Positions 1 through 46,500 of a stretch of DNA of 64,000 bases are shown here, piece by piece; the stretch's first letter is position 1; the number at the start of each line of letters is the position of its first letter. The notes below the pieces were generated by a model. It was given only the letters and a program-made list of their open reading frames with translations, had not been told where the DNA came from and ran no database searches. Both the position numbers and the translations under genes were made by a program. The stretch is taken from the NCBI GenBank assembly GCA_963823665.1, contig CAWGMQ010000005.1, forward strand, positions 1 through 64,000, in the 5' to 3' direction. The DNA comes from an uncultured Planctomycetota bacterium (GTDB lineage Bacteria > Planctomycetota > Planctomycetia > Isosphaerales > Isosphaeraceae).

Positions 1-570
1 GGTGCCGCCGAATGCTTTTTCCGCATCACGCACGACGGCGACGGTTTCCTTGATGCGTGCCTTGGCCTCCGGCGTTTTCACGCAGCGTTGGAGCGTCTCC
101 GTCTCCGCGTCATCCAATGGCACAAGGATCGTGACTTCGCCACTGGCGGCGTCAATGCGAGCTTTGCCGGAAAGTGTCGGCACCTGCTTGGCCGTGATTT
201 CAGCGTCGATGTCGGCGGGTGCTAGCTTCAGGGTCTTCGGTTGCACGCCAAGTGGCAGCGATCCCTGCGTCACGGGAATAATGATCCGCTCGGCCTCCGT
301 GGCCGTGAAACCGTTGCTAACCAATGCATCCCGCAACTCGGCAAGAACGTCCGTAAGCGAAGCGGATACAGAAAACGCATAAGCACAATTCAAATCAGGA
401 TGTTTCTTCACCTGGGCGTTCGGCAATCGCAGGATGCGTCCGACGATCTGCTCGATGGCGGTAGCGGATCGCGTTTCTTTCAGGCTGCAAAGCACATAGG
501 CAAACGGGCAATCCCAGCCTTCGCGTAGCTTTTCGACGGTGATGATGAACCGCACCGGGCATTTCTGACT
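1..570 (-). pseudogene. Type III restriction enzyme Res subunit (SF2 helicase) fragment; N-terminal part missing, runs off window
   Basis: Manual translation of the minus strand (not in the ORF track): KCPVRFIITVEKLREGWDCPFAYVLCSLKETRSATAIEQIVGRILRLP..., matching helicase motifs V/VI of Res-type proteins. The Res-like sequence starts abruptly at the repeat element at 571. Confidence 0.8.
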
Positions 571-862
571 GGGATTCCAGACACCCATCCTTTTGTCACG
601 GTCCTCCACATCCATTCATTCGCGGCTCGCACGTTCAGCGCAAAACCACGGCCTCTGGTCATTGGGATTCCAGAGGGATTCCGGGATTCCAGGGGATTCC
701 AGACACCCATGCTTTTCTGACGGCTCTTCGCACCCATTCACTCGCCCTGGCACGTTCAGCGCAAAACCACGGCCTCTGGTCATTTGGAACGCGCCGAAGG
801 CAACGCGCTGCTTGCCAAAAGGTGGGTGTCTTAAATCCGGTGTCTTAAATCCCTAAATCCCC
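571..862 (+). repeat. ~155-bp TIR element family, copy A (partial copy 571-663 plus full copy ~693-862, with stuttered ends)
   Basis: Left end GGGATTCCAGACACCC, right end GGGTGTCTTAAATCCC, shared core GCAAAACCACGGCCTCTGGTCATT. The left motif is reiterated at 664-692 and the right motif at 839-862. Confidence 0.9.
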
Positions 863-973
863 GGCGCAACCTCGGCTGCGCGAACTCGGCATCAAGCTCA
901 CCGATCTCGAAAGACGTCGTCGGGGCCCAACTTAGCGCTATAGAACTAAGCGTCGTCCCGTTTCTTCTTCCGG

Positions 974-1975
974 TCACGCGACAAAATAGGGGGGCAGGTA
1001 GTTGACTTCGCCCGACGCGAGCGTGGCGAACAGGTCGCCGTCGGTGGCGGTTTGCGGCATGTCCTTGCGCGGAGGTGCAAGGGCGCCCGTGATCGGCTGG
1101 TTATCGGCTTGCATCTCTTGGACGTTGTTCCAGAGCGCCTTGGTGAGCTGCTTGAGGTCGTCCACTTCGAACGCTTCCAGGTCCGCTTTCTGATCTTTCT
1201 TCGACAAGTCGTCCCAGGTGGCTTTCACGCGCTCGGCGAAGGGGTCTTTCTTGATCGTCAGGAGGTTGAGGCCGGACACGTCTTCGCGCGGCACCGTGCC
1301 GGTGTCGCCGGCGATGGTAAGCTGCGTCGCTTCCAGGCCGACGATCGGCGTCACCGGCGCCGGTTCCACGGGAAACTCCACATCATTGGATTGGATTTGC
1401 CCGTTCGGATTGCAGATGTATACCTTGGACCAGCGGTGGTGTCCGTCGATGATGTACCGTTGGTTGTCGTAACTCGCCGTCATGACGGCATCGCCTGTCT
1501 CCACGCCGCCGCTCCGGTAGAGCGTGATGGCAGCCGGGTCTTTCAAGATCTTGAGCGTCTTGTCGACGTCAATCTCGTTCTGGGTCGGCAGCAGGTCTTT
1601 GACGTCGAGGTTCCGCAAAACCGACGGTGCCGCTTCATCGATCGTGCCCCCCAGGATCGCATCGTCGCGGAACTGCATGACAAACGCGTCGGAGTAATGC
1701 CTCTGGAAGGTGACACCATCTTCCGCGAGGTTGAGGTCGTATTTCAGGTCGTACACGAATTTGGGGTACGGGGACTCCATCATCTTCTCATACGCCGCCT
1801 TCACATCGGGATCAATCGACGGTTGGTCGGTGACCGTTCCTTGGAAGTGAATATCGACGGCGGGCGGGGTGGTTTGGCTCTCGAGTCGAAATTGCCACTG
1901 ATGCGCAACGCCCGTGACGGTCAACGTCGATGGGACAAGCCGGTGTTCCAGCGCCTCGAAACTCAGTACCGTCAT
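974..1975 (-). CDS. Putative secreted protein: planctomycete LEPRxLL-type N-terminus plus ParB/sulfiredoxin-like domain
   Basis: MTVLSFEALEHRLVPS N-terminus and YIIDGHHRW motif; 333 aa from ATG 1975 within the 424-aa ORF. Confidence 0.75.
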   Translation of the reverse strand: MTVLSFEALEHRLVPSTLTVTGVAHQWQFRLESQTTPPAVDIHFQGTVTDQPSIDPDVKAAYEKMMESPYPKFVYDLKYDLNLAEDGVTFQRHYSDAFVMQFRDDAILGGTIDEAAPSVLRNLDVKDLLPTQNEIDVDKTLKILKDPAAITLYRSGGVETGDAVMTASYDNQRYIIDGHHRWSKVYICNPNGQIQSNDVEFPVEPAPVTPIVGLEATQLTIAGDTGTVPREDVSGLNLLTIKKDPFAERVKATWDDLSKKDQKADLEAFEVDDLKQLTKALWNNVQEMQADNQPITGALAPPRKDMPQTATDGDLFATLASGEVNYLPPYFVA

Positions 1976-2384
1976 GAGAACCTCGAAAGTACGTATCGTG
2001 GATCGAGACTGAACCATTCGCGCCGAAGCCAACGCTGGCATCCCGCGACCGGCTTCCGCGCGCCTCGGGCCTCGACTCGAGCGAAGGCGGTGGCGACGAC
2101 ACGAGCGCTTCCTTGAACCGGCGCGTTCCCTCGCCCGCCGACACGGTTCACACCGCGGAACCACGAGGCTCGCCGTCGCCACCGGGTCATGGCTCGCCGG
2201 TCGCTTCGACTCCACCCAAACGTCGCGGTGAAACAATCTCGAAACCACGATGCACCACGCGAAACGGCGCTGTCAAGAAGATTCGCCAAAGAAAGAAGAT
2301 CGAGGAGAAAGAGCGGTCGGCCAGACACGGGGTGATCAGCTCCGACGTCGCAAACCACTTGCGAACGAGCGCCGGGGCAGCCGG

Positions 2385-2742
2385 CCGTCACGATGGAGAC
2401 GACAAGGTCTCCCAAGTTCCCGGGGAACCCTATTGATCATTCGCCATGTTCTCCGACCCCGGTCTGACCAGGCACGCTAGTGGGTCCAGGTGTCGCTAAT
2501 GCCCGGCACGGCCCCCGCGTCAGACAAGGACGAGGGCTCAGGACAAGAAGAGGAAATTTCGAGGCTCAATCGCACAGCGTTTGATCTCGCTGTCTACGCT
2601 TCGCAGTGAGAGTCGCGTCTCCCCACGCAAGACTTGCTTCCGCCGCTGGCCCGGCTCTGCCGGACGGGATTGGTTACCCGCAGGGTTCCACTAAAAGGTT
2701 TCACATTGGAATGATCCTCCTTTTCCGAGCTTCTTGGCGCAA
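2385..2742 (-). mobile_element. Group II intron remnant 1 (5' end and domain I only)
   Basis: Minus strand starts TTGCGCCAAGAAGCTCGGAAAAGGAGG. It contains GCAAGTCTTGCGTGGGG..GCGAAGCGTAGACAGC..TTGAGCCTCGAAA and GGGAACTTGGGAGACC, typical of IIB-type domain I, and is homologous to 8380-8634. No RT or DV follows. Confidence 0.85.
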
Positions 2743-3113
2743 TGTCTGACATCCCCCGCATCGAATCCGAAAGCGAGTTGCTTGATCAAGCCATGATCTT
2801 GGTCGAAGCCGACCATCGAGCTGCTGCCGCTGTAATTGCTGGCGGCGCGTTGGAGACCCACCTGCGATACTACGTGGACAAGCACAGCGTCGCGATTACC
2901 GGGGACGGGTCGATCTCGAAGTATAACAGCGCCGTCGGACAAGCCCGGAAAGCGAACCCAGCACTCTACTCGGCAAACGACGGGAAACTGGTCGAGAGTC
3001 GGGGCGGTTTGCGCAATGAAGCTGCGCATGAACCCGCGAAATTCAACCGGAGCAAGGATGAAATCAAGCGGACGATTGAAGGAATCCGCGAGTTCATACG
3101 GCGCACAGCGTAG
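2742..3113 (+). pseudogene. 5'-truncated paralogue of the HEPN protein at 4037-4705
   Basis: Aligns with the C-terminal ~120 aa of 4037-4705 (AVIAGGALETHL..SISKYNSAVGQARK..RNEAAH) and begins at the repeat stub. Confidence 0.8.
2743..2757 (+). repeat. Right-terminus stub of the ~155-bp element (5' exon of intron 1)
   Basis: TGTCTGACATCCCCC matches the right ends at 6388-6402 and 7236-7248. Confidence 0.75.
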
Positions 3114-3285
3114 CCAGGGCCGTTCGGACCGATTCGCACCGCGAAGGTAGCTTCCTACGCTAAGCCATCGGGGCCCCCGGTCCGCCAATTTTTCACGCCT
3201 CAAACCACGCGGGCCGCTGATCTTCTCACGAGGATCTTGCGGCCGATTCTTTGCCACGCGCAAATTGCCAGAGGGGGATTCTTCA

Positions 3286-3852
3286 ATGGGCGAGCCGAAA
3301 CCGCAACCGTCAAGGAGTCGGTTTGACGTGTCAATTCACGAAGCCGGACATGTCGTCGCTGCTGTCGTTCTGGGTTTGCAATTTGAGTCAGTCGACCTGG
3401 AGCATCACGCAGACCCGAAAACGGGTGGCACCTCCCTCGGAGGCTTTCGCTTCGGCGAAATTCGCTGGGATCAATTTCGTGGTAAAGGAATCGATGCCAT
3501 ACGGCGTCACCTCATCGTTGCGTATGCTGGCGTCGCCACTAAGCCCAGCGTTGAGGCCGCGCTCGATGCCTTGACGACTGACGGTCTGAAAGACGAGGAA
3601 CGTGCTAAGGAGTTAGTTGCGACGGCTGTTTACAGCGGTCCCGAGAAACACCGCGAAATACAAGCCACGCTGACCTCCAAAGACAAGGGCGCTCTTGCAG
3701 AAGCATTTCAATCCGCTTGGGAATTGATTAACCCCCGGGGCAAAATCGTGAGAGAGGTCGCGAAGGCGCTGCGCATGCGACATCGACTAACTTTCGGCGA
3801 GGCCGTTGCTATCGTCCATGATTGCGAAGCGAATCCGGACTTGAATTCCTAG
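3286..3852 (+). CDS. Small zinc metallopeptidase-like protein (HEAGH; stand-alone M41/FtsH-protease-like)
   Basis: SIHEAGHVVAAVVLG, downstream AYAG and C-terminal VAKAL..LT pattern; GAGGGG RBS upstream. Confidence 0.7.
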   Translation: MGEPKPQPSRSRFDVSIHEAGHVVAAVVLGLQFESVDLEHHADPKTGGTSLGGFRFGEIRWDQFRGKGIDAIRRHLIVAYAGVATKPSVEAALDALTTDGLKDEERAKELVATAVYSGPEKHREIQATLTSKDKGALAEAFQSAWELINPRGKIVREVAKALRMRHRLTFGEAVAIVHDCEANPDLNS

Positions 3853-3890
3853 CTCGTAGGGCGCCTATTAAGAGTCGAGCCATATTAGCC

Positions 3891-3925
3891 GGCCGCGCTG
3901 TCCATAGGGCGCGGCCATTCTTTTC
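3891..3925 (+). terminator. Probable intrinsic terminator
   Basis: GGCCGCGC-N10-GCGCGGCC stem followed by ATTCTTTTC. Confidence 0.55.
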
Positions 3926-4036
3926 ACCCCTTCTTCTTGCTCTGTAGGCTATGCTATCGGGGGTTGCGACCAGCCGACACCGGCATCTGATTAAGACTCC
4001 GATGGCAAGAGTGTAGCACCAGAAAGAGTTTGGTTC

Positions 4037-4705
4037 ATGACGCGACAACAGCTCCAATCCTTCTACGAGCAACTAATCGCGACCGCCGACTCGATGCCAT
4101 TCGAATTGAGCCTGGGAGTTCCAGTCTACAACCAGGCGTCGGCCCACGAATGGGCAACAGAGGCCGAGTCTGCGTTGGCGGCCGTGTTCCCCGAGTCGCA
4201 TCCCACCCGACAGGCTTGGGCTCGTATTCACAAGCATCCAAAAGCGAGATTCGTTGGCGAAGTCTTTGACCAGTTCATGGGAGCGTTTAAGGGGGCATAC
4301 AACCAAATCCGGGATAACAGGCTCGCCTCCCTGATGGACATCATCCGGCTGGAATCGGAGAGCGATTTTCTTGACCAGGCCACCGAACTGGTCGAGGCCG
4401 ACGCCCGCGCTGCTGGCGCTGTGATCGCCGGAGGCGTATTGGAGACTCACTTGAAAAACTACGTGGACAAACATGGCTTATCGTTCGCGGGAAGCGGGTC
4501 GATCTCCAAGTACAACAGCGCCGTCGGGCAAGCCCGAAAATCGAACCCAGGGCAGCTTTATTCGGTTAACGATGGCAAGCTGGTTGAGGCTTGGGGCGGC
4601 GATCGCAATGATGCAGCGCACGAACCGAGTTCGTTCGCGCGAACCAGGGCAGACGTGAAGCGGATGATCGAGGGAATCCGGGAGTTCATTGGGCGAACAG
4701 GATAG
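4037..4705 (+). CDS. HEPN-domain protein (DUF4145-like), putative RNase effector
   Basis: 222 aa; AGAVIAGGVLETHL helix and C-terminal R-x4-H motif (RNDAAH). Confidence 0.75.
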   Translation: MTRQQLQSFYEQLIATADSMPFELSLGVPVYNQASAHEWATEAESALAAVFPESHPTRQAWARIHKHPKARFVGEVFDQFMGAFKGAYNQIRDNRLASLMDIIRLESESDFLDQATELVEADARAAGAVIAGGVLETHLKNYVDKHGLSFAGSGSISKYNSAVGQARKSNPGQLYSVNDGKLVEAWGGDRNDAAHEPSSFARTRADVKRMIEGIREFIGRTG

Positions 4706-5031
4706 AGAGCACCAGCGAGACCGATTCGTCCCTCCGAAGCGCTAGCTTCCTAAGCTAAGACTGAGGGTTGTCGCCGCCAAAAACCAACCGATTGCGACGT
4801 CGCTCCCGCTCGCTGTTTAGGATCGCGTGGACGCGTCGGACTTCGTCGGCTTGAGCCGCTTTCATGCGCCGGAGGTGCTTCGGTCAGGAGTGTCGCGGCT
4901 TTCATCGATTCCGGCTCGGGATCGCAGTCGGATTCTTTTGGTTAGCTTTTACCGATTAACCCATTTATACTGGCTTAGTTAGATTCGCCTCTTCCAGGCG
5001 CCGCCGAAGTCTTCCAACGAAGCAAGATCCA

Positions 5032-6116
5032 ATGATGCAGTCCGTGGCACCCGGCATCCGCGCGGCCCGCTATCACGTCGTCCTATTTCAAGGAGGGGGC
5101 GATGGCCTCGACCGGCAGTCTGTGCGTGCTTTACACCTATTACTACGCAAGCATATTGTGACCGCGCCGAAAAACACCGAAATTGACATATGGATCGACT
5201 CCCCTGGCGGGGATGCGCACGCAACGTACAAGTTGTTTCTGGAGCTCCGGTACCGGTGTGAGAAATTGAGGGCAGTGATTCCCGACTACGCAAAGAGCGC
5301 AGCCACATTGTTGACGCTTGGCGTCGATGAAATCTACATGTCGCCGAGCGCCGAACTCGGACCTCTTGACGCTCAAATTAAGCACCCAGAAAAAGAGCGC
5401 GAAATCGTCTCCGCGCTCGACATTGCAGACTCACTCGACTCGCTGGCACAGGCGTCCTTCGTCATGGCGCAACGATACTGCAATTTCATGGTTGAGGTTC
5501 TGGATCTGCCGCGTTCAGAGGTTCTCGGCTCGGTTCTCGAGTACATGGCACAATTTATGCAGCCAATCGTCTCAAAACTTGACCCACATCGAATTCACCA
5601 GGCCACGAGCCTACTTGAGGTCGCAGGTGACTATGGAGTGCGGATGTTGGCGAGGCGAAATGTCCCTGCTGACAAAAAGCTGGGACCAAGAGGCGCAAGA
5701 GCTTGTGAACAAATTGGTTAAGGATTACAGCACGCACGGTTTCATCATCAGTCGCGAAGAGGCTTCGATAGTGCTAAACTTGCCGGTATCTCCCGCGGAA
5801 GATCACCCGAGATGGTTGAACATTAAGGAGACTCCACGACGAATTTGAAAAGAACCACCGGTCTATCGTGAAAATCTTACAGGATTCGGAGCTAAAATCG
5901 CCCGCCCCGTCCCCGGAGGCCGACCATGAGCGAACACGATCAAACAAACCCCGAGCCGGAAGTGCCGGGCCGTCTGACGGCGCCCCGCAAGTCCGAAGAC
6001 AAAGAGGCAATCGAAATTCTCAGACGTCTAAGGCGGGAGGAGCGGGCGCTGACAAACGCGATCGTTGCCAAGACCGGAAGACTGCTGAAGTATGGAGGGC
6101 CCTCGGCGGTGAATAA
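5032..6116 (+). CDS. SDH-family ClpP-fold serine protease, with two apparent +1 frameshifts (~5683, ~5830)
   Basis: IDSPGGD, VIPDYAKSAATLLTLG, ELGPLDAQ motifs. The C-terminal part LVKDYSTHGFIISREEA continues in the next frame (ORF 5318-5848) and then probably in ORF 5868-6116. Confidence 0.8.
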
Positions 6117-6222
6117 TGCCGATAGTCAAACTCGCTGGCCGCGCGTCCGTTGGAGGCGGACGGCGCTTCAGCACCGAATCCCTATTGTGGCTCCCTTCGC
6201 TTTCTGGACGCCATTGACCTAA
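5926..6222 (+). CDS. Small hypothetical protein overlapping the protease 3' end
   Basis: GGAGG RBS before the ATG; charged helical segment KEAIEILRRLRREERAL. Confidence 0.4.
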   Translation: MSEHDQTNPEPEVPGRLTAPRKSEDKEAIEILRRLRREERALTNAIVAKTGRLLKYGGPSAVNNADSQTRWPRVRWRRTALQHRIPIVAPFAFWTPLT

Positions 6223-6244
6223 ACCGTTCTGATGGCGTTCGTAT

Positions 6245-6402
6245 GGGAATCCAGACACCCACCCGTTTCGTCACGCCCCCCGGCATCCATGCATTGGCGG
6301 CCCACACGTTCGGCAGAGAACCACGGCACGACCGCTGGTCATTTCGACAAAAAGAAGGCGCGAGTCCGACGCTGCGCAGAAGGTGGGTGTCTGACATCCC
6401 CC
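6245..6402 (+). repeat. ~155-bp TIR element, copy B (more diverged)
   Basis: GGGAATCCAGACACCC ... GGTGGGTGTCTGACATCCCCC with a homologous core. Confidence 0.9.
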
Positions 6403-6432
6403 TGGCCAAGTCAGACGAGATCACGCAGTCCA

Positions 6433-6482
6433 CGTGCCATCTGGCACGCACACTTTGACAGCATGGCAGTAGTGACTACGCT
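6433..6482 (+). promoter_or_regulatory. Putative promoter/operator of the antitoxin gene
   Basis: Palindrome CGTGCCA-TC-TGGCACG (6433-6448), TTGACA (6455-6460), then N16 and TACGCT, 7 nt before the ATG. Confidence 0.5.
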
Positions 6483-6489
6483 GAGGATC

Positions 6490-6948
6490 ATGAGTGTGCT
6501 CGACATCCGAAAGCCCGGCCGAAGGCAACGTGTCTCCCTTAATACTTTGGGCTCCAGTTTGGGATTGAAGGTGTCCCGGACTGATCAGCTCATTAACCAG
6601 GTCCAGCACGGTCTGTCGTTCAAGGCCCTGGTCTCTCTCGAGGCAATCAGCGGTATGACCGCCTCGGAAATCGCCTCGATCATCGGGATTCCCGCACGAA
6701 CATTGGCCCGACGTCGGGTCGCCGGCAAGCTGGCGCCCGATGAGTCGGAGCGCCTGCTCCGGATAGCCGCGGTTTTTGAGAAAGCGGTGGGTCTGTTCGA
6801 GGGCGACGTGCCTGCCGCCCTCGCGTGGCTGAGAGCTCCCAAGAAGACCTTGGGCCAGCAGAGCCCCTGGACCTTCGCCCGTAGCGAACTGGGGGCTCGA
6901 GAAGTTCTCGATCTGATTGGCCGCTTGGAGTACGGAGTTTTCACTTGA
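6490..6948 (+). CDS. Xre/MbcA/ParS-family antitoxin (RES-Xre TA system)
   Basis: GIPARTLARR..LAPDESERLLRIA..AWL..P...LG..P..ELGAREVLDLIGRLEYGVF. Confidence 0.9.
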   Translation: MSVLDIRKPGRRQRVSLNTLGSSLGLKVSRTDQLINQVQHGLSFKALVSLEAISGMTASEIASIIGIPARTLARRRVAGKLAPDESERLLRIAAVFEKAVGLFEGDVPAALAWLRAPKKTLGQQSPWTFARSELGAREVLDLIGRLEYGVFT

Positions 6949-7050
6949 TCGTCTAATTACCTCGTGAATCCTCGCCATGCAGACTTTCCTGAGCTTCAGG
7001 TTGGTAAACCATCCCGCTTCCGTTTCGACCCTCGGTTGACCGGCAAATGA
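6945..7050 (+). pseudogene. RES toxin remnant (almost entirely deleted)
   Basis: SNYLVNPRHADFPELQVGKPSRFRFDPRLTGK* is a typical RES-toxin C-terminus and directly follows the antitoxin stop. Confidence 0.8.
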
Positions 7051-7097
7051 TAGACGCGACCGAGGAAGAGGCGTCGCAAACATCGGCGATAGCATCG

Positions 7098-7248
7098 GGG
7101 ATTCCAGACACCCGTCCTATCGGCACGGTCCCCCGCATCCATTCATTCGCGGCTCGCACATTCGGCGCAAAACCACGGCCTCTGGTCATTTCGAACACGC
7201 AGAAGGCCAGCGCCCGACGCTCGGCAAACGATGGGTGTCTGACATCCC
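7098..7248 (+). repeat. ~155-bp TIR element, copy C
   Basis: GGGATTCCAGACACCC ... ACGATGGGTGTCTGACATCCC. Confidence 0.9.
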
Positions 7249-7461
7249 TTACATAAGGTTGCGGAAAGTACAGATATGAGAAAGATAATCCATTACCCTC
7301 ACTAGAGGTGTGCCTCCTGTGCCAGATGAGCTGCTATCTGTCCATGGATGTGAGGAGTTCCAGCCACACGTCTACAATTTGCTACATTGCTTACTGTGAG
7401 CCTTTCCATGATGACTGACACCAACTCGGCAGCGTACGATCGAACGAGGGGATTATGTCTC

Positions 7462-8091
7462 ATGACACCTAGGGTGCGAGATGCGGTGCAGTCGGCCCAA
7501 CCGAGGCGGCTTAATCTCGGCGATGCAATCGTTCTCGTGGCAATGACCGCCATCGGTTTTGGCCTGGCCAAGCCCGTCATCAATCGGTGGGATAACAGAT
7601 ACAATACCCCGGCCAAGATCCTCGCCGACTTGGCCACACGCGGCGTCTTCTTCGCCCCGATCCACATACTTTACTGGCCGATCACGGCCTCGCCTGTCCT
7701 ACTGAGCTGGACTCTCGCCGTCGGCGGCCTCAGCCTCCGACAGCCCCGGCCGCCGCTCCATCGCCTCCTCCGGCGTCCGGGAACTGTGGCCTGTCTAGCG
7801 GCTGCTACAGCATTGGCGTGCGAGATCGTAGTGGCCGTCCTTCTGTACCTGATGGCCGTCGTCGCAGGCATCACCCTGGGTTTCGACCTTCGGAATAATC
7901 ACAGCTACTTGAAAGCATATTACTTATTGATAGCGGCGCTTGGGTTCGCCATAGCAGCGGCTTGGGCGATCCTGATGCTCGCGAGGCGATGGCGAGCCGA
8001 GCCGAGTTGGATTGACCGTAGCGGAAGAGCCCTTGGCCTGTGCTGGATCGCTCTCATTCCGTTCTCATTCTGGATGGCCATGCTCAACTGA
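7462..8091 (+). CDS. Hypothetical multi-pass membrane protein
   Basis: About 5 hydrophobic segments; RRLNLGDAIVLVA N-terminus and WRAEPSWIDRSGRALG C-terminal motif; start uncertain (7408 or 7462). Confidence 0.75.
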   Translation: MTPRVRDAVQSAQPRRLNLGDAIVLVAMTAIGFGLAKPVINRWDNRYNTPAKILADLATRGVFFAPIHILYWPITASPVLLSWTLAVGGLSLRQPRPPLHRLLRRPGTVACLAAATALACEIVVAVLLYLMAVVAGITLGFDLRNNHSYLKAYYLLIAALGFAIAAAWAILMLARRWRAEPSWIDRSGRALGLCWIALIPFSFWMAMLN

Positions 8092-8107
8092 GAGGAGCCG
8101 AGGAGCC

Positions 8108-8634
8108 GCTGGGTAGGTCTGGGTGGTTGACCACCCAGACCCCCCGCAGATCCGTGCTCGCGCAATTAACGCACACGGCTCCTCATTTCAAACCTTCGCT
8201 GCTCGACGGTACACCGAGTGGACAACGATCGCTGCTGGGAGCGGATACCGCTCCAGCAGACGATACATTCGCTCCCAGGCGACTTCGCCGCCGCGGTGGC
8301 GTCGGCCAAGCCATTTCCTCCAGGATGCATAAACCTGGAGTTGGTAAGCCGGAACCTCGGCCGCCAGTCACGCCGGAAATGGCAGGGTCTCTCAGGTTCC
8401 CGAGCGACCCTCATGTCCCTACGCCCTGTTCTCGGACCCAGGTAGGACCGAACACGCCAGGCCGTTGCGGCGTGTCGACGCGGCCCCCGCTTGTGTCTAC
8501 AACGGAGGCTCCCACGATGAGTATTTCGGGGCTCGATAGCATGGCATGGGGACTCGCTGTCTACGCTGCGCAGTGAGGGTCACCCCTCCCCACGCAAGAC
8601 TTGCTTCCGGCTGCCGGCCAGGCTCTGCCGGGCG
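8108..8634 (-). mobile_element. Group II intron remnant 2: partial domain I, last ~50 codons of the maturase, DV and DVI
   Basis: Minus strand DV GAGCCGTGTGCGTTAATTGCGCGAGCACGGATC and DVI GGGGTCTGGGTGGTCAACCACCCAGACCTACCC. These are preceded by WRKWLGRRHRGGEVAWERMYRLLERYPLPAAIVVHSVY (domain X end). RT core deleted. Confidence 0.9.
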
Positions 8635-8740
8635 TCATTCGCGGCACGCAAGTTCGGCGCAAAACCACAGCCTCTGGTCATTTCCAACACGCAGAAGGCG
8701 AGTGCCCGACGCTCGGCAACAGGTCGGTGTCTGACATTTC
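8635..8740 (+). repeat. ~155-bp TIR element, copy D (right two-thirds)
   Basis: TCATTCGCGG..GGCGCAAAACCACAGCCTCTGGTCATTTC..GGTGTCTGACATTTC. A likely left-end variant GAGGAGCC x2 lies at 8092-8107 on the other side of intron 2. Confidence 0.85.
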
Positions 8741-9212
8741 TTTGACGTGCCGTGCCCCCTTTCTTTCATTCGTGGGATTCGTCAGATTCGTGGTTCCGCT
8801 TCCCCGCTCAGCGCCACACAACACGACGATCCGACAGAGCCCCGCACTCCGCTTCGGCCTTTCGCCTTCGGACAGCCACCACTTGGCTCGGCCCATCGTT
8901 CGCGCTCGGTGCTGCGTAATCTCAGCCTCCCCTGTCACGTGACTATCTGGCGGCAGCCGCGCACGCCATGCTACCCGCCGATCATTCCGATTGCCGCCGG
9001 CCGAAGCCAGCCGGACTTTCCGCTGCGAACCGACTGCCGCCGAGCGGAAGTACAGGCGGGCCGAAAACAACGGGCGCGCATGGGCTGTGGGTCTGGTGAA
9101 ATGATGGAAATCCCGATGCGCCACATCGATTGACCGTGCGTCTCGACCCTCAACAGGGACCCGGTTCGGCGTCCTTACGGGTAGAATCGTACACGAAGGG
9201 GGGAGCAAAGCC

Positions 9213-9286
9213 GTGACCACCGTACGTACCGTCATCCACGACCGGCGAATCGAGATTCCCGCACCCGAGGACCTTCCCGACGGTAC
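9213..9286 (+). pseudogene. N-terminal stub of a small antitoxin-like protein, cut by the adjacent element
   Basis: GGGAG RBS, GTG start, MTTVRTVIHDRRIEIPAPEDLPDGT, then the element end. Confidence 0.5.
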
Positions 9287-9567
9287 GGGACGGAAACCGG
9301 GACGCGATTAGTATTTAGCTCGATCGGCCCTGGTATTCCCTGCTATTATACCAAGAACTGCTAGACCGGTTGCGCTTGAGCATGGAGCGAGGACGACCCT
9401 ACGGCGGCGACGACTGGGCACGGCGAACGGTAAAAGAGCTTGGCTTGGAGCACACCGTCCGCCCGGAGGGACGGCCGCGTAAGGTAGGCCAGCCCGGGAC
9501 CGATCCAGCTCGCTAAATTCGCGCAATACTCGAACACAAAACTGTCCCCGTCCCTGTTTCGGTCCCC
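9287..9567 (+). mobile_element. Internally deleted REP-associated tyrosine (Y1/HUH) transposase element
   Basis: Ends GGGACGGAAACCGGGACG and the reverse complement of CGTCCCTGTTTCGGTCCC match at 16/18. 9352-9516 encodes LDRLRLSMERGRPYGGDDWARRTVKELGLEHTVRPEGRPRK, typical of RAYT C-termini. Confidence 0.7.
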
Positions 9568-10005
9568 AAGACCGCATCGCCCGAGATCCAGCTCTATCAG
9601 TATGACTTGAACGACGACGCGTCGAGCAAGACGGCCGTTTCGCTCTCGGCGGTGACTGTCTCGGTCATCGACCACGCGATCGAGCTCGACTTCGGTGCGA
9701 ACGGATTGGGCGCCAACCCCAACACGACGACCGCCGACGGTTATTACGAGATCGATATCACGCTTCCGAATGGAACGACCGCGGTGCACAACTTCTACCG
9801 GATGCTCGGCGACGTGAACGGCGATGGAACGGTGGACGAGAACGACCTGAATGAAATCGCCGCCGAAATCAATCTGTCGAGGCCGAATGGGCTTGCGCCC
9901 CTGGGTGTCGACGTCAACGGCGACGGCACAGTGTCCGCGCTCGACCAGTCGCTGGTGGCCCGGGCGAAGGGACACAAACTGAAGTCGGGACTTTCGCTGG
10001 GGTGA
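9568..10005 (+). pseudogene. Orphan duplicate of the giant protein's C-terminal dockerin region
   Basis: Highly similar to 48592-49029, including ~30 nt past the stop; GDVNGDGTVDENDL..DVNGDGTVSALD. Confidence 0.85.
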
Positions 10006-10050
10006 TGGAAGTCCGGCCACCGATCGCAGGGATTCCGGGAACGACGGGGT

Positions 10051-10288: not shown

Positions 10289-11314
10289 TCAGTACGAATC
10301 CGCGCTGATCACCTCAGCCCCGTTGCGCGTCGACAGGGCCTGGTAGACGCCGATACGCGAACCGGGGCCCAGTTGGAACGGAGGCGAACCCGGACCCGCG
10401 CCGGGGATCAGTCCAATCGGCACTCCAGTGGATAGATTCATCGGCCACGTATCGATGGAATTCTTCACAAACCGGACGGAGCCGTCCAGGAACGCGAAAT
10501 TCGCACCCCCGGGATGCTGGCTCGATGCGCCAGCAAGATAGGCCGGGAAATTATTCCCGTCCAGGTTTGGCATCACGAACTGCGGATTCAACGGATAGAA
10601 AGTGGTGACGAGCGAGTCGGACGGCCATCCTGATGACCACAAATGCCAGGAATTGTGAGCGGCTGGGTCGAGGATTGCCATGGTGTGCTCGCCATACGCG
10701 ATCGTCTGGCTCAGTCCATCGGTGACCGAAGCCAGCAAAATAGAACCGTCGGGACCGAAGAGCCCGTTACAGGAGGAGAAGAGGGGGGATGGTTCATTCC
10801 AGGTCCCCGCGTTGCCTCCGTAGCTGGTGAAGCGCATCGTGTAGGTGCCCGGGTTAAAGAAGACCGGCGGAGGGGCGATGAGCGCTTGCTCGACCGTCGG
10901 ATCGCTTGGACACCACAGAGTGCTGATCGCGATCGCCGAGATCGTCCCGTTCGGCGCCGTGAAGAGGTTGATGTTGAAGTTCATCGCATTGTACACCGTT
11001 GCCTGCTCGTAATAAGGCGCCAGGGCCAGGAACACGCCGCTCGAGATGAAGGGGAACTGCACGGGACCTCCCGCCGCGATGCGCTGCATCGGCGTCCCGA
11101 TCGGCAGGCTGCCGGCGGCGGTTACGTAGTTATGCGTCGCCAGGGCGATCTGCTTGAGGTTGTTGGAACATTGCATGCGACGCGCCGCCTCGCGGGCCGC
11201 CTGGACGGCCGGTAACAAAAGCGCGATCAGAACAGCAATGATCGCGATCACGACCAGCAATTCGATCAGCGTGAAGCCGGCTGCGGCGCTCCGGCGGCGG
11301 GTGCTCGAAATCAT
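10289..11314 (-). CDS. DUF1559 (SBP_bac_10) prepilin-type N-terminal cleavage/methylation protein with H-X9-DG motif
   Basis: [71 protein letters not shown]. Confidence 0.95.
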
Positions 11315-40508: not shown

Positions 40509-43500
40509 AGACCTCGGCTTGCTTGACACGCATACCGCCACGATCGACTGGGGCGATGGGACGTCGGTCACTATCAACGACTCGTCGACGTTCGTGAACG
40601 CCCAGGGCCAAACGGTTCCGGACCTCACCGAACCGACGGCAAGCTCACCCGGAACGATCACCATTGCACATCTCTACGACGATTCGAGTGCGTATTCCCA
40701 GGATCAGCCGATCCCGCTGCAGGCGACCCTGACCGTGGCCGACGATCACGGCGGGACGGTCTCCGACGCGTTCCAGGTGACCGTGCTGGACCTGACTGCG
40801 CCGTCGAGCAGCGTCGCTTCCTTGCCGCAGTATACGACGACGCCGGATTTCACGGTGAGCTGGTCCGGAACTGACAATGCGGGCGGCTCGGGAATCGCGT
40901 CGTACGACGTCTACGCCTCGGTCAACGGGGGCGCGTACACGCTGTGGCAGGCAAATACGACGGCGACCTCCGCGACTTACCCGGGCCAGCCAAACAGCAG
41001 CTACGCTTTTTACAGCGTGGCGACGGACGAGGCCGGGAACATGCAGGCAACGCCCGCGGCGGCCCAGTCGAGCACTACGGTGGTCCTCTCGCCGCCGACG
41101 AGCAGCGTTGCCGCTCTGCCGGCGACGACGATCAACACGACATTCCCGGTGAGCTGGTCCGGCTCCGGCAGCCCTGGCCTGGCCCACTTCGATGTCTACG
41201 TCTCCGACAACGGCGGTCCGTTTGCCCCGTTTGTTACCGACACCACGGCGACCTCGGCCGAGTTCACGGGCCAGGTCGGGCATACTTACGGCTTCTACAG
41301 CCTGGCCACGGACACCCTGGGACACACCCAGACGACCCCGGCGGGCGCCCAGGCCAGCACTGCGGTGGTCGCGCCCGTCGCAATCACGGCGAACGATCCC
41401 AGCGTGCCGCTGGGTCAACCCATATCGTTCCAGGTGACGGTGACGGGGGGCGCGGGCCAGGTAACGCCGACGGGCGAGGTGACGCTCGAGGCCGACGGCT
41501 TGGTCCTTTCTGATACCGGACTGAGCGACGGAGTTGCAAACTTCGCGGACATCTCGAGCCTGGAGCTTGGTGTCGGCACCACAACCGTGACCGTGCTGTA
41601 CGCCGGCGACGGTGTTTACCCGGCCGCATCCGCGAGCACGATCCAGATCGTGACCGAGGCGGTCACGAAAACGACGCTTGCGAGTTCCGACTCCACGGTG
41701 GCGTACGGTTCGAGTATCGTCTTCACGGCCACCGTCTCGACGGGCATCGCCGGGCTCAACGCGACCGGCTCGGTCACGTTCTTCGATGACGGCGTGAGCT
41801 TTGGCACCAGTGCAGTGGTCGACGGCGTGGCAACAGTCTGGGTAGGGTGCCTGACCGCCGGCGGCCATTCGATCACGGCCGCTTTCAACGACCCAAGCGG
41901 CACGTTCCAGGGAAGCACCGCGGCGGCGGTGACGCAGCTTGTGACGTTCCCGGGCACTCCGGCGGACGGCGACGTCTCGCTCTACGTGCCGACCGACTTC
42001 CTGGCGCAGCCGGGCTCGACCGTCACGATCCCCGTCGACCTGATGGTGACTGACCCGAATGCACTCGCCGCCGGACTGGGCGGCTTCACCGTGCCGATCG
42101 CGTATGATCCCACGATTCTCTCGAACCCAACGGTCACGCTCGGCTCCTACCTGAGCACTCCACTGAACGTGACGGCCGACAGCGCACCTTTCGTGCTGAC
42201 GGCCGACACGAGCACGGCCGGCGAGGTGATCTTGAGCGCCGCGTCGAATCTGGGGACCTTGCCGATTCCGGCCGATACCCTGGTGGAGATCGGCGAGATC
42301 ACGTTCACCGTCAGTTCCGGAGCTCCGAAAAATCCGACGGTCCTCAACGTGCAGCAATCATCCGGCTCGACCGAGCTGGAAGTTTGGGACGCCAAAGGTG
42401 ATTCCGTTGCACTGGCACCGTCGGTCACGAATCTCCCGACCGATGCAATCGACGGTGTGCTGTGGATCGGCCAGGAGACACCGCTCGTCGTGTGGCCTGC
42501 CCCCACGGCCATCACGTATGGCACGGCGCTCGGCGCCGCAGAGCTCGATGCGCTGGCCAGCGTGGCCGGTACCTTCACTTACACGCCGGCTCTGGGCACA
42601 GTTCTCTCGCCCGGGAACGATCAGAGCCTGTCGGTGAGCTTCACGCCGGACGACACCACCGACTACACGACGGCGTCGATGACTGTCCCGCTCGACGTGT
42701 TGCAGGCGAATACCGCGCTGGGCGGCCTCACAGCGTCACAAGCGATCTGGAACGGCACCGCATCGATCAACCTGGGCGGCACGATCACGAGCAACAGCGA
42801 TCTGACCGCTCCCGGCGACGTCTCGGTCACCGTCGACGGCATCACCCAGACGGCCGCCATCGAGCCCGGTGGCTCGTTCAGCACCACGTTCAATACGCAG
42901 GCGATCCCCGCGTCGGCGGCGCCGTATACCATCACATACACTTACGCCGGAAACACGGATTTCACGGCGGTGTCTGACGAATCAACTTCTCTGACGGTCA
43001 TCGCGGCCGCGATCACGCCTGTTTCGCCCAATCCGACAAACACGCCGGTTTCGAGCGTGACGGTGACGCTGGCTGACTCGATCACGACGACCGCGCTCAC
43101 CGCGGCCGATCTGAGCCTGACCGATGACGGCGGGCCCAATCTTGTCAACGGCGTGATCTCGTTGTATTCGACTTCGAGCGACACTTACGTGATCACCAGC
43201 CTGTCTGGCCTGAATCCGAGCGACGGACTCTACACGCTGACCTTGAACGGGGCCGGACTGACGGACCAGGCAGGCACCCCGATCTCCGGGACGCTCTCGA
43301 CCTCGTGGCTCCTGGACACGACCCCGCCAACCAGCACGGTCAGCTCGCTGCCGGAGCAGACCACGTCCACGAGCTTCACCGTACCGGTGACCAGCAATGA
43401 CCCAACCGGGCCGAATGGGAGCACACCGTCAGGCGTCGCTTCGATCGCGATCTACGACTCGGAGGACAGCGGACCGTACACGCTCTTCGCGACCGTGACA

Positions 43501-46500
43501 CCCGCAAATCCCTCTGCTCTCTTCACGGGCCAGGCCGGCCACATTTACGGGTTCTATAGCATCGCAACCGACAACGCGGGCAACGTCCAGGCCACGCCGC
43601 CCGGAGCCGAACAGACGATCGCGATCTTGCAGCCGCTTTCCGTGACTTCGATTTCGGCGGTCGTGCCTGACCCCCGGAATTTAGATGTTTCGAGCTTGAA
43701 TGTCGACCTGAGCCTTGCCGTGGCCCCAGGCGGTTTCGACTGGCAAGCTCTGACCCTCACCGATAACGGTGGGCCCAACCTGATCACGAGCGCGGTCGGC
43801 AGCAAAGAACTTGCGATGGGCAATACCTACGTGATAACCGAACTGTCAGGACTGACTCAAGCGGAGGGTGAGTACACGCTGACAGTCAACGCCGCCGACA
43901 TCACGGATCAGTATGGCAATCCCGGAAGTGGCACGATGTCCGTGATGTGGCTGATGGACACGACGACGCCCACAAGCACGGTCAATTCGTTGCCGGCGCA
44001 GACCGCGTCCACGAGCTTTAACGTATCGGTGACCAGCAGCGACCCGACCGGGTCGAACGGGAGCACACCCTCGGGCGTCGCTTCCATCGCGATCTACGAC
44101 TCGGAAGACGGCGGGGCGTACTCACTGTTCACGACCGTGACGCCCGCAAGTTCTTCTGCTCTCTTCACTGGCCAGGCCGGCCACAGCTACGGGTTCTACA
44201 GCGTTGCAACCGACAACGCAGGCAACGTCCAGGCCACGCCGACCGCGGCCCAGCAAACCGTCCAGATCCTTTCAAATGTGTTCGTAACCTCGATCGCCGC
44301 GGTCAGCCCCAACCCACGAAACACACCGGTCTCGACCGTCGCCGTCACGTTCAGCACACCGGTCAATCCCAGTACCTTCAGCGCCAGCACACTCACCCTG
44401 ACCGACAACGGCAACGCAGTTGCGATCACCAGCGCCGTAAGTCTCAGCCTCGTCTCGGGCAACACGTATGACATCGATGGCCTGGCTGGGTTCACGACGG
44501 CCGAAGGGGCCTACAACCTGACCGTCAACGCATCGGCGATCAACGACACATACGGCAACGCCGGCACCGGCTCGCTGTCGACCTCATGGCTGATGGACAT
44601 TACGCCGCCCACAAGCACGGTCAGCTCGCTGCCGGCCGAGACCACATCCACGAGCTTTAACGTGGCGGTGACCAGCAATGACCCGACCGGGTCGAACGGG
44701 AGCACACCCTCGGGCGTCGCTTCCATCGCGATCTACGACTCGGAAGACGGCGGGGCGTACACTCGGTTTGCAACCGTCACGCAGGCAAGTCCTGCTGCTC
44801 TCTTCACCGGCCAGGCCGGCCACACTTACGGGTTCTACAGCATCGCGACTGACAGCGCAGGGAACGTCCAGGCCACGCCGGCCACGGCACAGGAAACCGT
44901 CCAGATCCTCCAACCTGTGTTCGTAACCTCGATCGCCGCGGTCACACCCAACCCGCGAAACAGGCCCGTGTCGACTGTCGCCGTCACGTTCAGCATACCC
45001 GTCAATCCCAGCACTTTCAGTGCCAGCGCGCTCACCCTGACCGACAACAGCAACCCGGTCGCGATCACCAGCCCCGTCTCTCTCAGCCTCGTCTCGGGCA
45101 ACACGTATGACATCGATGGCCTGGCTGGGTTCACGACGGCCGAAGGGGCCTACAACCTGACCGTCAACGCATCGGGCATCGAGGACACATACGGCAACGC
45201 CGGCACCGGCTCGCTGTCGACCTCTTGGCTGATGGATACGACACCACCCACAAGCACGGTCAGCTCGCTGCCGGCCGAGACCACGTCCACGAACTTTAAC
45301 GTGTCGGTGACCAGCAATGACCCAACTGGGTCGAACGCGAGCACACCCTCGGGCGTCGCTTCCATCGCGATCTACGACTCGGACGACGGCGGGGTGTACA
45401 CGCGGTTTGCAACGGTCACGCAGGCAAGTTCCGCTGCTCTCTTCACGGGCCAGGCCGGCCACACCTACGGCTTCTACAGCGTTGCGACCGACGGCGCAGG
45501 CAACAGGCAGGCCACGCCGGCCACGGCACAGGAAACCGTCCAGATCCTCCAACCTGTGGCCGTGACTTCGATCGCCGCGGTCTCTCCCAACACGCGGAAT
45601 ACACCGGTCTCGACCGTCGCTGTCACGTTCAGCATACCGGTCAATCCCAGCACGTTCAGTGCCAGCACGCTCACCCTGACCGACAACGGCAACGCAGTTG
45701 CGATCACCAGCGCCGTAAGTCTCAGCCTCGTCTCGGGCAACGCGTATGACATCAATGGCCTCGTTGGGCTGACAACGGCCGAAGGGAACTACAGCCTGAC
45801 GGTCAATGCATCGGCGATCGACGACACATACGGCAACGCCGGCACCGGCTCGATGTCGACCTCTTGGCTGATGGACACGACTCCGCCCACAAGCACGGTC
45901 ACCTCGCTGCCGCCCGAGACCACATCCACGAGCTTTAACGTGTCGGTGACCAGCAGTGACCCAACCGGCTCGAACGAGAGCACACCCTCTGGCGTCGCTT
46001 CCATCTCGATCTTCGACTCCGAGGACGGCGGCGCGTACACTCGGTTTGCAACCGTTACGCAGGCAAGTTCCGCTGCTTTCTTCACGGGCCAGGCCGGCCA
46101 CACGTACGGGTTCTACAGCATCGCGACCGACAACGCGGGCAACGTCCAGGCCACGCCGGTGACGGCACAGGAAACCGTGCAGATCCTCCAACCTGTGGCC
46201 GTAACCTCGATCGCCGCGGTCTCTCCCAACATGCGGAATACACCGGTCTCGACCGTCGCTGTCACGTTCAGCATACCGGTCAATCCCAGCACGTTCAGTG
46301 CCAGCACGCTCACCCTGACCGACAACGGCAACGCAGTTGCGATCACCAGCGCCGTAAGTCTCAGCCTCGTCTCGGGCAGCACGTACGACATCAATGGCCT
46401 GGCTGGGTTGACCACGGCCGAAGGGACCTACAACCTGACCGTCAACGCATCGGGCATCGAGGACACATACGGCAACCTCGGCACCGGCTCGGTGTCGACC

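Follow-up and report, generated by a model that had tools for sequence, protein, structure and literature searches.

The 64,000-nt window analysed here is the start of contig C5 in the genome of an uncultured planctomycete of the family Isosphaeraceae (G000 below; 16.46 Mb in 12 contigs, 92% complete). Between positions 571 and 8740, it contains five whole or partial, co-oriented copies of a gene-less, non-coding 151-nt repeat with inverted ends. This element hosts self-splicing introns and likely scrambles accessory genes; it is not an integron-style cassette system. An earlier annotation of the same DNA, made without database searches (the sequence-only reading), reported at least five whole or partial same-strand copies within 8.2 kb, with none noticed in the other 55 kb, and described their ends. 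BLASTN with copy C (7098-7248) as the query agrees, the only matches in the window being 571-663, 693-838, 6245-6400, 7098-7248 and 8635-8737, all on the plus strand; the ends are as stated there. The repeat is, however, not confined to the window, given that at least 52 distinct sites were found in G000, 26 on each strand.

The leftmost copy, A1 (571-663, element bases 1-93), is the outermost left-end fragment, with its tip against a cut gene for the type III restriction protein Res. It is followed by three tandem left-tip fragments of 11, 8 and 10 nt (664-692, plus strand), the full, diverged copy A2 (693-838; 77% identical to copy C) and two tandem right-tip fragments of 14 and 9 nt (839-861, plus strand). 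The tandem fragments on both sides of A2, including the 93 nt of A1, run outward and reach from the tip to inner points that vary. Further along the plus strand, a right-end stub comprising the outer 13 nt of the element (2743-2755) serves as the 5' exon of a group II intron and is joined to a HEPN-like gene. Copy B (6245-6400) is a full 156-nt variant, 77% identical to the full 151-nt reference copy C, and copy D (8635-8740) retains element bases 46-151, its right end being worn and the BLASTN match covering bases 46-148. The outer limit of copy D is formed by two 8-nt left-tip fragments of the GAGGAGCC variant (8092-8107, plus strand), which are the 3' exon of an intron remnant. The sequence-only reading missed the tandem fragments at 664-692, 839-861 and 8092-8107 as well as the two minus-strand intron remnants (2378-2742 and 8108-8634).

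The ends of the repeat share a core, CAGACACCC, within the profile N-G-G-A-T-(T/G)-(C/T)-CAGACACCC. The outermost 1-3 nt of the tip are variable and often identical to the bases replaced at the join. The repeat is not a classical REP (repetitive extragenic palindromic) sequence or REPIN, the class to which it had been likened: its ends have no GTAG foot, and it folds no better than shuffled sequences (z-scores of -0.04 to -1.19), which rules out hairpin ends. No target duplication was detected, with 51 full copies behaving as shuffled pairs for repeats of at least 3 nt.

Genome-wide, at least 45 repeat matches were obtained from 40 scored of 106 candidates in G000; this count and that of the distinct sites come from stretches around the best-scoring copies. 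Among 120 other genomes of the family, the repeat is present in 4 and strong only in a congener (G029, 84% complete). Neighbouring copies within 15 kb lie on the same strand in 27 of 29 cases in G000 and 16 of 17 in G029, an excess that is absent beyond 15 kb (8/14 and 4/9, respectively), so that the co-orientation of the copies is real and local. As to a possible replichore bias, the local GC skew agreed with the element strand in about two-thirds of the loci, and contigs carry the element on both strands. End-like fragments are found outside 24 of 70 left ends and 19 of 62 right ends, and altogether we counted 98 terminal fragments of 10-134 nt. Other miniature families of about 120-180 nt have the same end core and different interiors (L052:8136-8300 and 10496-10677; L157:4101-4297 and 5415-5580; L152:3238-3359).

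Gene breakpoints and the long Y1 elements

As the sequence-only reading had proposed, ends of the repeat mark gene breakpoints. The middle piece of Res (1-570, minus strand; PADLOC REase_III, E 1e-30) is cut at 570/571, where the tip of the miniature begins; an intact Res of 888 aa in another genome (G093) is 79% identical to 1-570, and the match ends at 561, the three codons between that point and the tip being variable. Neither the N-terminal ~365 aa of Res nor its partner Mod was found in the 92% complete G000. The 5'-truncated HEPN-like gene (2756-3113, plus strand) starts at the stub, as had also been noticed, and is 69% identical at the amino acid level to residues 95-221 of a full paralogue of 222 aa (HEPN/DUF4145-like; 4037-4705, plus strand); the missing first ~100 aa were not found anywhere in G000. 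The HEPN call made earlier is upheld by the ESM Atlas, its sole support (0.96, first match), but not by Pfam, NCBIfam or PADLOC, none of which gave a match.

Among the compared loci, a flank homologue was available for 26 of 118 distinct outer tips, and homology ends at the tip in 12 of the 26, compared with 6 of 311 control positions. In none of 11 of these cases does native sequence resume behind the far end, within the 1.5-6 kb that could be compared; the twelfth join lies within an element. Tips are joined to DNA that is unrelated or is a local duplicate. For five tips, the native copy was found at the same locus with the same strand, in four cases at a distance of 3.8-10 kb on the inward side. 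Tips are the limits of duplications of 0.1-2 kb, a triple unit at 100% identity is present in L149, and G occupies target position +2 in 12/12 joins.

The proposal of a non-autonomous element with a Y1/HUH partner also holds up, in that genes of a long Y1 family are bounded by the same core. The family has 53 matches in G000, several of them complete; two loci (L067 and L065) are elements of ~1.85 kb with the CAGACAYCC core facing inward at both ends and with tandem end fragments like those of the miniature. In a set of 25 near-full long-Y1 genes, hand-picked from G000, G029, G037, G039 and named metagenome-assembled genomes (MAGs), inward cores were found upstream in 18/25 and downstream in 23/25, with none facing the wrong way, and several cores were present at 10 upstream and 12 downstream ends. 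An autonomous copy in an Isosphaeraceae MAG (L164) has 18 tandem right-end cores, many of them with the exact reverse complement of the 16-nt left end of the miniature. All 4 other genomes carrying the element encode the Y1 family. The outer 7 nt of the ends differ by subfamily, and the core is common to the miniature and the Y1 elements.

The partner protein (350-404 aa) fits TnpA-Y1 subclass 2.3 by its motifs, core insertions, long C-terminal tail and relatives in Alteromonadales. Its NHLH, YVDLNP and TS motifs match that subclass when compared with Table 1 of PMC6006769, and both core insertions fall where a subclass 2.1-type protein (L032) has gaps. The best PDB match of its structural model (predicted TM-score 0.70) is TnpA-REP (4ER8, E 1.7e-4), and the PDB sequence search gave weak IS200-type matches only (E 0.02-0.4). 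Most of the named relatives encoding the protein are Isosphaeraceae and other Planctomycetota MAGs. Homologues are also found on Alteromonadales replicons, 10 of 13 plasmid records being from Pseudoalteromonas, Catenovulum, Saccharobesus or Shewanella, and related cores are present in Pseudoalteromonas and Shewanella isolates. Among 7 complete isolate records, 4 have GACACCCA 73-80 nt upstream of the Y1 gene and 4 have a TGGGTGTC-like core downstream; complete isolate replicons contain end duplications of 38, 57 and 131 nt.

A long-Y1 element also interrupts Res itself. Base 1 of the window is its insertion site; the element, which is frameshifted and decayed, has three tandem left ends and matches a copy from another MAG at 97% identity, fills G000:C7:1-1738, with the C-terminal third of Res at C7:1739-2732. 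Contig C7 ends inside the right end of this element, and base 1 of C5 resumes Res with no base missing. Provided that the starts of C7 and C5 adjoin, as we infer, this insertion is a clean two-ended one.

Several other arrangements of Y1 genes were observed. A long-Y1 gene whose ends are of another type (L062, G000:C10:187433-191515) lies directly at the edge of a CRISPR array, against a partial repeat. In two subclass 2.1 Y1 genes (L036:1470 and L039:1820), the interruption falls at almost the same codon, immediately ahead of the catalytic tyrosine; the interrupting sequence is the present miniature in one gene and a different palindromic repeat in the other. On the Shewanella decolorationis plasmid pNi1-3 (L310), a subclass 2.3 element is located between an SDR-like N-terminal fragment (assigned by eye) and a LysR C-terminal fragment, and genes appear to be cut on both sides of the element in this isolate too. 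A long tandem array of hairpin repeats precedes an IS200-like Y1 gene in L031:1-1500. In the window, 9285-9565 is a remnant of a different, subclass 2.1-type element of the TIRtron kind, with C-terminal codons between GGGGACAG-like ends; it cuts a small antitoxin-like open reading frame (ORF) at 9288 and is 85% identical to a piece in L057.

Proposed one-tip joining and the alternatives

HUH enzymes nick single-stranded DNA, remain attached to the 5' end through a tyrosine and transfer this end to a 3' OH, as summarized in the text of PMC6006769. The best explanation of the observations as a whole, to which we assign a probability of about 0.7, is that the miniature shares its end core with subclass 2.3 elements, is likely mobilised in trans by their Y1 enzyme and spreads by one-tip joining. 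The predicted nick in single-stranded DNA would fall ~7 nt outside the core, and each joining event would attach a single tip to a new site. If that site lies within the element's own end, a terminal fragment would be added; if it lies past the far end, the element would be duplicated together with its neighbours, yielding a same-direction array; and if it lies in the outer flank, the DNA in between would be deleted, as might have happened to the N-termini of Res and the HEPN-like protein. Two-ended insertion also occurs, as seen in the long-Y1 element that interrupts Res at base 1. A single joining rule would thus account for the fragments, the clusters and the cut genes, and the four local native copies that lie inward, at 3.8-10 kb, are where the duplication model predicts them. 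Both the activity of the enzyme and the one-ended joining are what we infer from the arrangement of sequences.

Several observations weigh against this explanation. Any insertion breaks homology at the tip, so that the 12/26 count alone is not discriminating, and it is for this reason that resumption behind the far end was checked; recombination between dispersed copies also yields unrelated flanks. Searches for empty sites in G029, with the window included, returned paralogues only, and the sequences denoted native are not orthologous empty alleles. One of the five local native copies lies outward of the tip. G at +2 was found in only 29 of 87 distinct tandem-fragment contexts, against a background of 24%. 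At least five lesions within 1-9600 are not at miniature or long-Y1 ends (2378, ~5700, 6953, 8634/8635 and 9288). Among 35 distant loci, the strict core was present upstream in 8/30 (one of the 8 a miscount) and downstream in 3/28, with 2 in the control, and two long-Y1 genes of G000 (L062 and L063) lack this core and are bounded by other ends. Finally, an autonomous element with both exact ends of the miniature was not found, and the 110-nt interior of the miniature matches no autonomous subterminal region.

RecA-mediated recombination between copies is the main rival for the unrelated flanks. In the corresponding scenario, which we consider unlikely yet the most serious of the alternatives, the insertions would be ordinary two-ended Y1 events, and the unrelated flanks, deletions and clusters would have arisen later through recombination between ~100 copies combined with decay of the accessory region. 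The long-Y1 element in Res indeed resembles a clean two-ended insertion, several lesions of the window lie away from ends, and near copies are barely more alike than far ones (0.859 vs 0.825). Homologous recombination, however, cannot make fragments of 8-30 nt that all start at the tip and end variably; the local duplications stop within a few nucleotides of the tip; and, with native sequence resuming in 0/11 cases, no insertion among those compared was clean.

The sequence-only reading had proposed a candidate cassette or gene-shuffling system. As an integron-like platform, the repeat would be a recombination site that excises and inserts defence and toxin-antitoxin genes as units. The strong local co-orientation, the defence-like cargo of the window, the recurrence of one 500-nt flank behind another copy and the position of copies B and C on the two sides of an Xre-RES module would all fit this view, which is nevertheless largely refuted and, in our estimate, very improbable. 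The attC consensus (RYYYAAC/GTTRRRY), already reported as missing, is absent from both strands of copy C, and no IntI scored over the cut-off in either of the two genomes searched (G000 and G029; the best segment for TIGR02249 reached 112.6 bits vs 265). Genes are cut rather than framed, and the intervals between copies hold several genes on both strands, including that for ribosomal protein L19. Copies B and C do flank the Xre-RES module (6490-7050, plus strand), which consists of an intact Xre/MbcA antitoxin and a RES toxin remnant, but they do not delimit it: the ~360-nt internal RES deletion at 6953 is not at an end, the limits of homology (6435 and 7050) are 34 and 47 nt away from the two copies, and an intact paralogue, 92% identical (G000:C5:1593645-1594622), has no end motif in 12 kb. 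Homologues of the HEPN-like gene likewise lack a core nearby in 4 of 6 loci.

The cargo had also been described as typical of integron or defence islands; in eight other clusters the content is mixed. There, 22 of the 84 ORFs analysed, out of 112 picked by a rough script, had a Pfam match; 5 of these 22 were toxin-antitoxin or methyltransferase (defence-like) genes, and the others code for enzymes, for repeat proteins and for ribosomal protein L19. With the mixed cluster set aside, 9 cargo genes run with the element and 8 against it. The defence flavour of the window is real, but it is not a property of the element.

IS256- or ISKra4-like insertion sequences have inverted ends starting with GGG, and a miniature inverted-repeat transposable element derived from such a DDE insertion sequence, causing deletions next to itself, would match the present repeat in size, inverted ends and non-coding interior; we regard this as highly improbable given the lack of a target duplication and a core that is tied to Y1 genes across phyla, with the limit that only Y1 families were searched and DDE genes were not looked for. 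Least credible of all is the possibility that errors of long-read assembly, or an intron reverse transcriptase (RT) leaving by-products, gave rise to the tandem terminal fragments and broken genes, for which the frameshifts in the 12-contig assembly of G000 (SDH and the C7 Y1 gene) and the introns in many ends might speak: the tip fragments are not a long-read artefact because a short-read contig of an independent run (X5; one contig, depth 2.5) jumps back from 642 to 572 and so has the same tandem left fragment, and no intron was seen at the isolate ends with duplications of 38, 57 and 131 nt. The survey from which this contig comes covered 12 DNA runs with shares of at most 0.09, with no RNA run among the runs listed.

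A broader claim, to which we give somewhat less than an even chance, is that subclass 2.3 Y1 enzymes drive HUH transposons of a separate kind, whose inverted ends are symmetric, form no hairpin and are processed singly. Self-joining would build telomere-like arrays of tips, and joins nearby would duplicate, delete and fuse accessory genes from planctomycetes to Alteromonadales, with two intron lineages specialised on the two strands of the core.

Group II introns and other features of the window

Two lineages of group II introns evidently home into the end core at fixed positions. The lineage A intron of the window (2378-2742, minus strand; its 5' 365 nt, starting with TTGCG; RF02005, 96.5 bits) is 95% identical to a 733-nt ORF-less copy in L048. 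Its insertion point is immediately behind the CAGACA of the right end, and this explains why only the 13-nt stub stands at 2743-2755; the cut that limits the intron at 2378 does not coincide with an element end. The remnant inside the left end of copy D (8108-8634, minus strand; RF02005, 122.7 bits; RF00029, 32.6 bits, below gathering) combines domain I of lineage B (90% identity) with a different 3' part that includes domains V-VI, and its 5' ~80 nt were lost along with element bases 9-45. Both remnants are above gathering for RF02005. Of 40 matches to the intron 5' pattern, 38 were examined and included 8 chance matches, 21 introns of lineage B and 9 of lineage A. The 5' ends of lineage B follow TGGGTGTCY in 21/21 cases, and those of lineage A follow CAGACA in 6/9, with 2 after a worn end and 1 at an unrelated site. 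The landing sites of the two lineages are on opposite strands of the core, 5 nt apart. The loops of exon-binding site 1 (EBS1) are complementary to the 5' exons, and the introns may be viewed as parasites that would pair with the end core through EBS1 and likely EBS2. Both ORF-less and RT-encoding copies exist, the intron-encoded protein matching TIGR04416. A third intron type, in which the RT has an HNH domain, was seen in the left end of some copies (L050:9217-11121; L046:14141-16045).

The remaining genes between the copies are diverse. A 333-aa ORF (974-1975, minus strand), opposite to the element strand and without a family match, has an N-terminal planctomycete-type LEHR-LVP motif and an IIDGHHRW motif, which we take to be ParB/sulfiredoxin-like; pieces of it occur in four soil runs. 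Downstream of the truncated HEPN-like gene is a peptidase-like ORF with a HEAGH motif (3265-3852, plus strand; a weak M50B match below the cut-off), and beyond the full paralogue follow an SDH/ClpP-like protease in two frames, split near 5700 (5032-5848, plus strand; PF01972, E 4e-13), and, between copy C and the limit of copy D, a 234-aa hydrophobic ORF of no confident family (7387-8091, plus strand). The 500-nt flank of copy D (8764-9288) recurs at 80% behind another element (G000:C11:552202) and in G029; there, as judged by eye, it continues into a likely antitoxin-PIN pair. Behind stop codons, at distances of 5-45 nt, are four loosely dif-like TAG..CTA..TAAG sites (931-950 on the minus strand, 3148-3164, ~3857-3873 and 4743-4759). 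The exact pattern was found only in the two HEPN-like 3' flanks in G000, in none of 4 other genomes and behind none of 6 homologues, and a second pattern for these sites had no match in 5 genomes. Farther along the window, a very large surface protein gene contains seven to eight 639-nt coding repeats (43170-47830), and a multi-copy dockerin-like C-terminal module that is widespread in G000 and G029 is found at 9568-10034, 14303 and 48592.

Comparison with known systems

The closest known systems, judging by the features compared here, are TIRtrons with the terminal inverted repeat (TIR) families, REPIN-RAYT (REP-associated tyrosine transposase) systems and subclass 2.3 itself. For the latter, Quentin et al. 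(2018, PMC6006769) found no flanking structures of the REP type, and their text mentions neither ends nor miniatures nor a mechanism. What the partner protein has in common with that subclass are the NH-u-H, YVDLNP and TS motifs, the two insertions in the core, the long tail, the Alteromonadales homologues and the occurrence in multiple copies with many fragments; the differences are the inverted ends with a conserved core, the miniatures, the tandem tip arrays and the homing introns. As in TIRtrons (TIRYT; Di Nocera et al. 2013, PMC3733652), a Y1 gene is bounded by TIRs, and free TIR repeats occur as dimers and clusters in both systems. TIRYTs, however, are mostly of subclass 2.1 with a GGGGWSAS motif in the text of that paper, whereas the elements described here belong to subclass 2.3 and have the CAGACAYCC core; ends of the GGGGWSAS type in the host belong to separate subclass 2.1 elements, not to the repeat. 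Gene breakage, tip arrays of variable length and intron homing are not described for TIRtrons in the text of PMC3733652, and the literature searched, in which the term TIRtron occurs in a single paper, yielded no description of subclass 2.3 ends, tip arrays or intron homing, with the proviso that the figures and supplements of PMC3733652 and PMC6006769 could list such ends.

REPIN-RAYT systems, as presented in the texts of Bertels and Rainey (2011, PMC3116915) and Bertels et al. (2017, PMC5581495), likewise involve a short two-ended element moved in trans by a Y1 enzyme and form tandem clusters that take in flanking DNA. The present element differs from them as presented there in lacking a GTAG foot and a stable hairpin and in breaking genes rather than staying extragenic, and its transposase is multi-copy, decaying and itself mobile. 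For a Y1/HUH subclass without a reported DNA substrate, the sequence of the ends is now defined, and miniatures occurring in nature, rules for the junctions and intact copies are available, some of the latter in cultured Gammaproteobacteria. To our knowledge, how RAYT-type enzymes move non-autonomous repeats is still an open question; the present family appears to be active and leaves readable products, which makes this question testable.

Integrons and clusters of attC sites lacking integrases (CALINs) also have same-direction repeats among accessory genes. Here, in contrast, there is no attC core, no IntI and no single-gene cassettes, and the element accounts for a recurring false signal of integron-like arrays in very large planctomycete genomes. 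Group IIC-attC introns land in a site that belongs to another mobile system. The introns described here resemble them and the class E/F introns, as these are treated in the texts of PMC3753933 and PMC3552965, in landing on the site of another mobile system, but differ in that two lineages seem to pair, through EBS1 and likely EBS2, with opposite strands of the end core of a Y1 transposon, 5 nt apart, introns being seen in this case to use a transposon end as a renewable landing site.

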